Part shown: positions 8,396 to 40,835 of the stretch, in pieces
How the letters are laid out: every line of letters starts with the position of its first letter
Numbering within the stretch: position 1 is the stretch's first letter
NCBI GenBank assembly: GCA_030765785.1
Contig: JAVCCC010000008.1
Location: forward strand, 1-60,222
DNA: 60,222 nt
Direction: 5' to 3'
Source: Candidatus Aceula lacicola
GTDB taxonomy: Bacteria > Omnitrophota > Gorgyraeia > Zapsychrales > Aceulaceae
Program-made: the position numbers and the translations under genes
Notes under the pieces: generated by a model
Told to the model about the DNA's origin: nothing
Databases searched by the model: none
What the model saw: only the letters and a program-made list of their open reading frames with translations

Positions 8396-9802
8396 ATGAC
8401 ACAACAAACACAACTCGCAATTATTGGAGCAGGTCCGGCTGGATATACCGCAGCTTTTTTAGCTGCAGATAAAGGGCTCAAAGTTACCCTGATTGATGCC
8501 ACTGGAAAATTAGGCGGCACCTGCCTTCATCATGGATGTATTCCGTCCAAAGCTCTTTTACATGTTGCTAAAATCATTTCAGGTGCTAAAAACGCGTCTG
8601 GAATAGGCGTCACTTTTGGTGAACCTTCCTTAGATTTTGAAAAAATTGCATCGTTTAAAGACAAAGTTATCGCACGGCTAAGCGGCGGACTCAATCAACT
8701 GCTTAAAAAACGCAGCATCACCCTTATTGAAGGCGCAGCAACATTCTCAAGTGAAACGTCTCTTGCTGTAAAAACAAAAGGCGAAACGATTACGCTTAAC
8801 TTTGAAAAATGTATTATTGCCACGGGCTCTCTACCAGCTAATCCTTTTGCTGATGCCCAAAAAGATGATCGTGTCATTTTCTCCGAACAAGCTCTAGAAC
8901 TAAAAACAATTCCTAAAAAAATTCTAATTATTGGTGGTGGATATATTGGACTTGAAATGGCAACTGTTTACTCAAACTTTGGCTCAGATGTAACAATTTG
9001 CGAACTTATGCCAACTCTTTTGCCAGGGGCCGACCAGGACATCATATCTGTGTTATCAAAAAAACTTTCTTTGACCTTGTCCAATATTTATACTTCAACA
9101 GCTGTCGAAAACTATCAACAAACAGATCAAGGTATCTTGGTTATTTTTGACGGACCTGAGGGAAAAATCTTTGAGGAAACTTTTGATCAGGTCCTTATTG
9201 CAACAGGGCGTGTTCCAAATACAGAAAACTTAAATCTTTCCAAAGCAAACATCCCTCTAGATGAAAACGGATTCATTAAGACTGATAAAAGCAATCAAAC
9301 TCCAGTTAAAAATATTTACGCTATCGGCGACGTAGCTGGCGGACTTCTTTTAGCACACAAAGCTTCGGATGAAGCCCATCGAATCATTGAATTTATTTTA
9401 AATCCATCTAACGATCAAGCTCAAGGCATTATTCCTTGCGTTGTTTTTACAGATCCAGAAGTTGCATGGTGCGGTTTAACTGAAGCTGAAGCCAAAGAAA
9501 AAAATATTGAAATCAAAATCTCTAAGATTCCAATGATGGCCAACGGTCGAGCTCTTGGCATTAATCAAACAGAAGGATTTACAAAATTAATCTTTGATTC
9601 TAAAATTAAAAATGTTATTGGGGCTGTCGTGGTCGGACCTGAGGCAGGAGAGCTTATCAGCTCGATTAGCATAGCTGCTCAAAATAAATTAACTGCAAAA
9701 CAACTCGCCGAATCCATATTTCCGCATCCGACGCTATCGGAAACACTAAAAGAATGTGCCCAAAGCTTTCTAGGCACTAATGCTCATTCTGTGAAGACTT
9801 AG
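8396..9802 (+). CDS. lpdA: Dihydrolipoyl dehydrogenase
   Basis: GAGPAGY, GGTCLHHGCIPSK redox disulfide, GGGYIGLE, HPTLSE. Confidence 0.95.
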   Translation: MTQQTQLAIIGAGPAGYTAAFLAADKGLKVTLIDATGKLGGTCLHHGCIPSKALLHVAKIISGAKNASGIGVTFGEPSLDFEKIASFKDKVIARLSGGLNQLLKKRSITLIEGAATFSSETSLAVKTKGETITLNFEKCIIATGSLPANPFADAQKDDRVIFSEQALELKTIPKKILIIGGGYIGLEMATVYSNFGSDVTICELMPTLLPGADQDIISVLSKKLSLTLSNIYTSTAVENYQQTDQGILVIFDGPEGKIFEETFDQVLIATGRVPNTENLNLSKANIPLDENGFIKTDKSNQTPVKNIYAIGDVAGGLLLAHKASDEAHRIIEFILNPSNDQAQGIIPCVVFTDPEVAWCGLTEAEAKEKNIEIKISKIPMMANGRALGINQTEGFTKLIFDSKIKNVIGAVVVGPEAGELISSISIAAQNKLTAKQLAESIFPHPTLSETLKECAQSFLGTNAHSVKT

Positions 9803-40018: not shown

Positions 40019-40063
40019 AAGGCTCTCCTACTATTAGTATTAATATTAAATATTTAGTAGTTT

Positions 40064-40092
40064 ATTATATAGAAAAGGACAAAAAGTGTCAA
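40064..40092 (-). promoter_or_regulatory. Consensus sigma70 promoter of the lysS operon
   Basis: TTGACA-17 nt-TATAAT, a perfect match. Confidence 0.85.
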
Positions 40093-40206
40093 CGAAAAGC
40101 ACCCGCAAAATATTGAGTATAAAAAGCATAAAAAATGCTCAATATCTAACAAACACAAAGGTTAAAAAATTAGAAATGGTAGGATTTTAATAAAAATGAT
40201 TTCTTT

Positions 40207-40800
40207 TTACGAATATCTTCGAATGCTAGTCATAACTTTACCAACAATCGAAGTCTCCTCTGTGACAGGAATCGGCTCATATTTTGGGTTGGCCGGAACA
40301 AGAAAATAATGCGTCCCTATTCTACTCAATCGCTTAACCGTCGCCTCTTCGCCTATCAAAGCAACAACAATTTCGCCAACCTGAGCAACTGCTTGTCGTC
40401 GGACCAAAACAAGATCATTCGACATAATACCCGCTTCAATCATGCTATCGCCTTTTACGCGCAATGCAAAAATATCTGAATCTGAAAAATAAACATCGTC
40501 CAAATCCACATATCCTTCAATATCTTCAACAGCCAAAGTCGGACTGCCAGCAGCAACCGCTCCTAAAATAGGCACGCGAAAAGCTTCCTTAACCAATTCA
40601 ATTGCCCGCGCTTTTCCTTCACTCACCCTAATATAGCCCTTATCAACAAGAGCCTTAAGATAATCTCGTACTGTTCCAGTTGAAGAAAAGCCAAATTCTT
40701 GAGCAATCTCTCGAATTGTCGGCGGAATTTTTTCATCTTTGATTTGATTAAAAATAAATCGCAAAACATTTTTTTGCTTATCTGTAAGATTCTTAACCAT
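40207..40800 (-). CDS. lexA: SOS repressor LexA
   Basis: LTDKQ..PPTIREI wHTH, VAAG cleavage site, GDSM serine, TVKRL lysine. Confidence 0.97.
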   Translation of the reverse strand: MVKNLTDKQKNVLRFIFNQIKDEKIPPTIREIAQEFGFSSTGTVRDYLKALVDKGYIRVSEGKARAIELVKEAFRVPILGAVAAGSPTLAVEDIEGYVDLDDVYFSDSDIFALRVKGDSMIEAGIMSNDLVLVRRQAVAQVGEIVVALIGEEATVKRLSRIGTHYFLVPANPKYEPIPVTEETSIVGKVMTSIRRYS

Positions 40801-40806
40801 GAATTA

Positions 40807-40835
40807 ATACTACCACACGCTTGTGTGGATGTCAA
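40807..40835 (-). promoter_or_regulatory. lexA promoter with a palindromic operator in the spacer
   Basis: TTGACA-17 nt-TAGTAT; 16 of the 17 spacer nt are CCACAC-N4-GTGTGG (40813-40828); ATG is 6 nt after the -10. Confidence 0.85.

Follow-up and report, generated by a model that had tools for sequence, protein, structure and literature searches.

What does a perfect inverted repeat do when it fills the spacer of the lexA promoter? The question is raised by the lexA locus of Candidatus Aceula lacicola (Omnitrophota), which lies on a stretch of 60,222 nucleotides that was analysed whole and is referred to here as the window. A preliminary description of this DNA had placed the arrangement TTGACA-t-CCACAC-aagc-GTGTGG-TAGTAT-taattc-ATG on the minus strand at the start of lexA and had read the dyad within it as a candidate new SOS box. 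Re-reading of the sequence reproduces both the layout and its coordinates (minus strand, 40835-40798). It also confirms a perfect 6-bp inverted repeat with a 4-nt centre in a 17-nt spacer (1+6+4+6 nt), so that the repeat plus one base occupies the spacer completely. The features on which the argument rests are the following.

40830 to 40835, minus strand: -35 hexamer TTGACA, kept as TTGACA in nearly all orthologous lexA promoters.
40813 to 40828, both strands: predicted LexA operator with arms at 40823-40828 and 40813-40818, reading CCACAC-aagc-GTGTGG on the minus strand and CCACAC-gctt-GTGTGG on the plus strand; conserved at about 60 lexA promoters.
40807 to 40812, minus strand: -10 hexamer TAGTAT, from the promoter scan.
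40798 to 40800, minus strand: lexA start codon ATG; transcription is predicted to start at or adjoining 40800.
40207 to 40800, minus strand: lexA coding sequence, 197 amino acids plus stop, from the open reading frame and family profiles.
40648 to 40695, minus strand: recognition helix of the helix-turn-helix, codons 36 to 51, FGFSSTGTVRDYLKAL, as aligned with E. coli LexA.

In the promoter scan, TTGACA-17-TAGTAT scores 10/12 and carries a TG before the -10 hexamer. This TG belongs to the right arm of the dyad, as the last three bases of the operator, TGG (40815-40813), are at the same time the TGn of an extended -10. Lying in the -35/-10 spacer, the predicted operator overlaps the promoter of lexA itself, which is the arrangement by which LexA autoregulation is recognized.

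Judged from its sequence, the gene encodes a canonical LexA that retains its cleavage site and catalytic residues. The 197-aa open reading frame matches the LexA winged-helix DNA-binding domain (PF01726, 3.9e-21) and the S24 peptidase domain (PF00717, 2.9e-33), scores 205 bits against the NCBIfam LexA equivalog TIGR00498 (cut-off, 111), and can be aligned along its full length with E. coli LexA structures (E value of ~1e-34). The self-cleavage site Ala84-Gly85 (VAAGSP), Ser119 (GDSM), and Lys156 (TVKRL) are invariant in the family alignment of 16 relatives and align with VAAGEP, GMSM, and TVKRL of E. coli LexA. The nearest LexA proteins are those of Candidatus Omnitrophota/Omnitrophica, one of which, at 80% identity, is from Candidatus Aceula meridiana. 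The recognition helix, FGFSSTGTVRDYLKAL, is invariant in 16 Omnitrophota LexAs and aligns with residues 35-50 of E. coli LexA, LGFRSPNAAEEHLKAL. The remark in the preliminary description that this helix is unlike that of E. coli is borne out by the alignment, in which the DNA-reading helix is SSTGTVRDY in the window LexA versus RSPNAAEEH in the E. coli protein. The helices of Bacillota LexAs also differ from that of the window (e.g., GLSSTSTVHSYL), and the same presumably applies to B. subtilis LexA.

One dyad in one window is, by itself, weak evidence. A match with up to 2 mismatches arises in 25 of 100 shuffles of the window, which is what could be said for a chance palindrome in an AT-rich intergenic region. 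The match here, however, is exact, and it sits precisely in the promoter spacer of lexA, the single gene at which an operator of this kind would be expected; about 60 orthologous promoters have kept it. On account of this position and of the conservation in relatives we rule chance out, and its probability is negligible. The window holds no second copy of the dyad, as had been noticed before; a search with up to 2 mismatches and a matrix scan at 12 bits or more agree on this point.

The dyad occurs at the same promoter position in about 30 Omnitrophota lexA loci from genomes, in 29 from metagenomes, which were picked by the exact motif pattern, and in 3 from Planctomycetota. Orthologous lexA promoters, from which the preliminary description had allowed that the motif might be missing, thus carry it in the same part of the spacer across Omnitrophota and Planctomycetota. 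In 24 of 29 Omnitrophota-type lexA loci, the dyad is present with 3 mismatches or fewer, no more than 140 nt upstream of the gene, between TTGACA and TAnnnT. The other 5 loci have a near-perfect copy farther off, 330-2400 nt upstream of lexA; three of these distant boxes front genes that precede lexA (DinD, or a RhuM-like gene and RecQ), and two have no long open reading frame between box and lexA. TAnnnT follows directly after the dyad in all orthologues. When a matrix made from the lexA sites was run over 557 kb of Omnitrophota DNA, it returned 31 matches of at least 16 bits, all at lexA loci, although 25 of the 31 were training sites of the matrix, and this evidence is to that extent circular. 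Reversed sequences gave 0 matches and shuffles gave at most 1. A chance palindrome was rejected on the combined grounds of lexA-promoter conservation, the matrix scan, and these null controls.

Several loci depart from the simple arrangement of operator, promoter, and lexA. Extra genes lie between operator and lexA in L002 (8800-10588), L030 (8313-9869), L020 (7591-10588), L111, and L119/L168, and the inserted genes encode DinD (twice), a RhuM-like protein together with RecQ, an NYN-domain protein, and a DUF6625 protein. The DinD homologue (NF008573, 407 bits) is placed between box and lexA in two genomes and the RhuM-like gene with RecQ in one. The operator-promoter unit seems to be a landing place for extra cargo. 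In L019, two boxes 15 nt apart (CCACACAGATGTGTGG and GCATACTAATGTGTGG, 9479-9509) precede lexA by about 500 nt, and the interval contains no long open reading frame. On the metagenome contig L149, the box is followed by a LexA-like N terminus, MKPYAELTPKQEKVL, past which the contig has no LexA match; an open reading frame for a 437-aa C5 DNA methyltransferase fills the next 1.3 kb, and lexA may have been truncated or replaced here.

Among the orthologues, variation is seen in the four central positions of the dyad and in the 1-2 nt that follow the -35 hexamer, whereas the arms are conserved. Deviations within the arms are one-sided and uncompensated (CCATAC/GTGTGG, CCACAT/GTGTGG, and CCGCAC/GTGTGG). 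The variable centre and these one-sided changes indicate a protein site rather than an RNA stem. The palindrome could otherwise be a structural or RNA element, such as a terminator or attenuator of the upstream thiF-like gene, given that a 6-bp stem with a 4-nt loop is possible and that the dyad is located 37 nt downstream of the stop of that gene. However, the one-arm variants would break the pairing, no T-run follows the dyad, no terminator is predicted there by the scan, and the folding is ordinary (z = -1.5); a hairpin or terminator was rejected on the scan, the folding energy, and the one-sided variants. Moreover, the upstream neighbour varies among genomes, whereas the dyad is fixed relative to the -35 hexamer, the -10 hexamer, and lexA, and the same sequence is found at unlinked Pol IV promoters. 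Nor does a conserved spacer that binds no repressor fit well, as sigma-70 spacers are not normally conserved in sequence. We consider a structural element or repressor-free spacer to be very improbable.

The preliminary description had also raised the case in which the motif would be absent from other repair promoters. An exact-pattern scan of metagenome contigs (CCACACAWWTGTGTGG) returned at least 120 loci, and among the 120 matches listed, 42 directly front lexA (29), a Y-family Pol IV gene (11), or ImuB-C (2). The exact box was matched 22 times in viral contigs, with none of these matches in front of lexA, Pol IV, or ImuB-C, and we treat the viral matches as chance, save a few in promoter context. 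Because the metagenome set was selected by motif, Pol IV was examined independently through homologues of one stand-alone Pol IV, for which six loci came from long contigs, none with lexA within 3 kb. In all six, a box with 0-1 mismatch precedes polIV, or an imuB-C-polIV pair, at a distance of 40-320 nt; by chance, about 1e-3 such boxes would be expected per locus. The motif is thus present at repair promoters that are not linked to lexA. Beyond these six, the box is found at other damage genes, namely, at the 11 Pol IV and 2 ImuB-C promoters among the metagenome matches listed and, within lexA operons, at DinD and RecQ. A recA gene under the box was seen once, downstream of lexA in the Planctomycetota contig L127. 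No recA was found in all the Omnitrophota DNA fetched, and the 60-kb window holds no recA, uvrA, or polymerase IV gene.

A longer palindrome, TTGCCATAC-CCACACATATGTGTGG-GTAT..., which contains the box, recurs in five low-GC metagenome contigs (L128, L151, L171, L192, and L206). This element is conserved in its own right and has no connection with lexA or Pol IV.

The reading of the dyad as an SOS box is supported both by conservation in lexA promoters and by the lexA-unlinked Pol IV and ImuB-C sites. We consider it highly likely that CCACAC-N4-GTGTGG is the operator by which LexA of the Aceula lineage represses its own promoter. More broadly, the comparative evidence indicates that the sequence is very probably a LexA site in the uncultured phylum Omnitrophota and some Planctomycetota.

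The choice of LexA as the protein that would bind here draws on a further pattern. Along with the sequence of the operator, its conservation, and its specificity for lexA and SOS genes, we computed directly its covariation with the LexA helix. LexAs with the helix STG[TS]VRD[YH]L have the CCACAC box, and other helices go with other dyads at the same promoter position. The Fibrobacter LexA of L050, with the helix ISSTNGVRSIL, has TGCCC-aatt-GTGCA between the -35 and -10 of lexA; an Omnitrophota LexA on a long branch (L037) has CCGAAC-N4-GTTCGG; and two STATVRD variants have CCAyTC...GrGCGG. On a LexA tree made by a quick method, and with weak deep branches, the motif needs 4 state changes, compared with about 34 in label shuffles, and the motif-bearing proteins cluster. 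A clade of 47 Omnitrophota members in this tree is uniformly CCACAC.

Boxes had been expected from the outset to be phylum-specific, and this expectation holds only in part. The box does track a LexA clade, that with STG[TS]VRD[YH]L, which comprises Omnitrophota and part of Planctomycetota, but it is not confined to one phylum. High-GC contigs with the box come from Planctomycetota, including Brocadiia, and a Verrucomicrobiia metagenome-assembled genome has TACCACAC-N4-GTGTGGTA on the start region of Pol IV. A strictly phylum-specific box is ruled out by the Planctomycetota LexAs, by this Verrucomicrobiia Pol IV promoter, and by the GAAC-type box of the Omnitrophota locus L037.

Three further observations concern the distribution of boxes and LexA types. 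In eight contigs with a GC content of 0.55-0.61 (L122, L133, L139, L142, L165, L208, L211, and L213), TACCACAC-AWWT-GTGTGGTA stands 1-3 nt before the ATG of a Pol IV gene. This Pol IV is 464 aa long, and one of the sources is named "Verrucomicrobiia bacterium"; the Verrucomicrobiia lineage may have a second LexA type or a transferred cassette. Two Planctomycetota/Phycisphaerae loci (L047 and L053) have a second LexA type, with an E. coli-like helix, FGFSSPNAAAQHLKLIEKKG, and without the CCACAC box, and Planctomycetota therefore have at least two LexA specificities. A Myxococcota chromosome (L074) has GCACAC-attt-GTGTGT after TTGACA upstream of lexA, where the LexA helix is quite different (FGFSSVASARQHL); this site may be a convergent CACAC-type box.

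The link between LexA and the site is computational, and the box is found mostly at lexA, imuB-C, and polIV, a small set that another damage regulator could own. The dyad could accordingly be the operator of a different transcription factor that controls lexA and the translesion genes. Such a regulator would have to account for a dyad that changes with the LexA recognition helix, and stays when the helix stays, across phyla, and no second regulator gene accompanies the box in the loci examined. The 6-N4-6 geometry and the AC-N4-GT core, furthermore, are those of known Gram-positive and cyanobacterial LexA boxes (PMC3091678), and LexA as a rule regulates its own gene through a site that overlaps the promoter (PMC3323433). 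We therefore regard another regulator as unlikely, and LexA itself remains the preferred binder.

How does the predicted operator compare with LexA boxes already described? The closest parallels are the Gram-positive (Cheo/DinR) box, CGAAC-N4-GTTCG, and the cyanobacterial box, AGTAC-N4-GTACT (PMC3091678, PMC3323433). As in those boxes, arms of 5-6 bp flank a 4-nt centre that is often A/T-rich, the AC-N4-GT core is invariant, the site overlaps promoters of lexA and translesion genes, and the presumed binder is a canonical LexA, in which a winged helix-turn-helix is combined with an S24 peptidase domain. Unlike them, it has CCAC(AC) as its outer half-site, in place of CGA(AC) or AGT(AC), and the helix here is STGTVRDYL, whereas it is of the SSTVHxHL type in the Bacillota LexAs compared. 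The Cheo half-sites GAAC/GTTC are replaced by CCACAC/GTGTGG, with only the AC-N4-GT core in common; the CCACAC box would act in the manner of a Cheo box, from which it nevertheless differs in kind. The earlier statement that the dyad matches no known box consequently needs to be qualified. The CCACAC half-site is indeed another sequence, but the dyad belongs to the xxxAC-N4-GTxxx family and is not an unrelated motif. We know of no LexA box with a CCAC outer half-site. Our search of the searchable literature found no description of a CCACAC LexA box and none of an SOS system or LexA-binding motif of Omnitrophota or Planctomycetota. Based on these sequence comparisons, we place the CCACAC box, as a new variant, among the LexA boxes of the Gram-positive type, xxxAC-N4-GTxxx.

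Two other boxes bear comparison. Mazon and colleagues reportedly described, in 2004, the Fibrobacter succinogenes LexA box as TGCNC-N4-GTGCA. The geometry, the inner CAC-N4-GTG core, and the location of the site between the -35 and -10 of lexA are the same as here, but the outer two positions are TG in Fibrobacter versus CA/CC, and the Fibrobacter LexA has a different helix (ISSTNGVRSIL) and belongs to a different LexA clade. For Verrucomicrobia, the box is said to be TGTTC-N4-GAACA, in work by Erill and colleagues from 2016. It, too, comes from a phylum of the PVC group and is palindromic around 4 central nt, and the regulon that it governs consists chiefly of genes for translesion and mutagenesis, but the sequence and orientation of its half-sites differ.

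The usual operon in Omnitrophota/Planctomycetota relatives consists of lexA, an open reading frame of 85-105 aa resembling ImuB-C, and a Y-family polymerase (Pol IV). Operons of lexA, stand-alone ImuB-C (GSU0042-like), and Pol IV were described by Aravind, Anand and Iyer in 2013 (PMC3765255), and the small open reading frame beside lexA/Pol IV here is the stand-alone ImuB-C that they described next to LexA and DinB. Their paper covers the gene neighbourhood, not the CCACAC operator, and the window lexA is without the cassette. The LexA subclade of the window (the window plus L001-L011) has a solo lexA, lacking the imuB-C-polIV cassette, whereas the rest of the phylum has the three-gene operon. 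In the window, a 190-nt gap after lexA (40019-40206) carries a near-consensus promoter for lysS, TTGACA-17-TATAAT. This suggests that lexA is monocistronic in this genome, whereas in most of the phylum it is not. What the genomes with a solo lexA lack may be found in the stand-alone Pol IV and ImuB-C promoters.

The start of the gene is equally compact. Between the -10 hexamer and the ATG of the window lexA there are 6 nt and no Shine-Dalgarno sequence. Of the 54 lexA promoters listed, not all of which come from this LexA clade (a few do not), 36 combine a gap of 6-7 nt with the lack of a Shine-Dalgarno sequence, and those with longer leaders carry GGAGG. Given the short gap and the lack of a Shine-Dalgarno sequence, the lexA mRNA is probably leaderless.

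How the locus would operate can be pictured from the established LexA paradigm (PMC3323433), from which we infer the steps of repression and relief. A LexA dimer would bind with one winged-helix domain on each 6-bp arm, and the recognition helix S39-STGTVRDY-47 would read the arm. With the 17-nt spacer taken up by the dyad, whose right arm also supplies the TGn of the extended -10, bound LexA would exclude RNA polymerase. Upon DNA damage, induction would follow from RecA-stimulated self-cleavage at Ala84-Gly85, by the Ser119/Lys156 dyad, and the promoter would be freed. The first transcribed nucleotide would then be the A of the ATG or one adjoining it, and the lexA mRNA would be leaderless. 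Among relatives, the box would control either the lexA-imuB-C-polIV operon or separate imuB-C and polIV promoters, and the regulon would therefore be centred on translesion synthesis. A possible, still tentative scenario for the subclade of the window is that the ancestral lexA-imuB-C-polIV operon was split into separate lexA, imuB-C, and polIV genes, each behind its own copy of the promoter-operator and several of them leaderless. The whole SOS system of these bacteria, which have small genomes, would then perhaps be reduced to two or three transcription units that serve translesion synthesis, and LexA would control neither recA nor excision repair. We regard this scenario as conceivable but would not yet bet on it.

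Differences between clades in LexA motifs are already known, and the advance is in that sense incremental: CCACAC would be an added specificity class in the well-studied divergence of LexA motifs. A defined box would allow LexA regulons to be predicted in hundreds of uncultured genomes, and the compact combination of promoter, operator, and predicted leaderless start could find use as a simple switch that responds to DNA damage. Within the recognition helix, G42, T43, R45, and D46 are candidate specificity residues; Bacillota LexAs have H/G in place of R45/D46. If the reading is true, the xxxAC-N4-GTxxx boxes (GAAC, GTAC, GCAC, and ACAC), with their matching helix changes, form a natural series from which a LexA recognition code could be approached. 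For the SOS response itself, the predicted LexA box at translesion genes lends support to the idea of translesion polymerases as the unchanging core of SOS regulons (PMC7739468).
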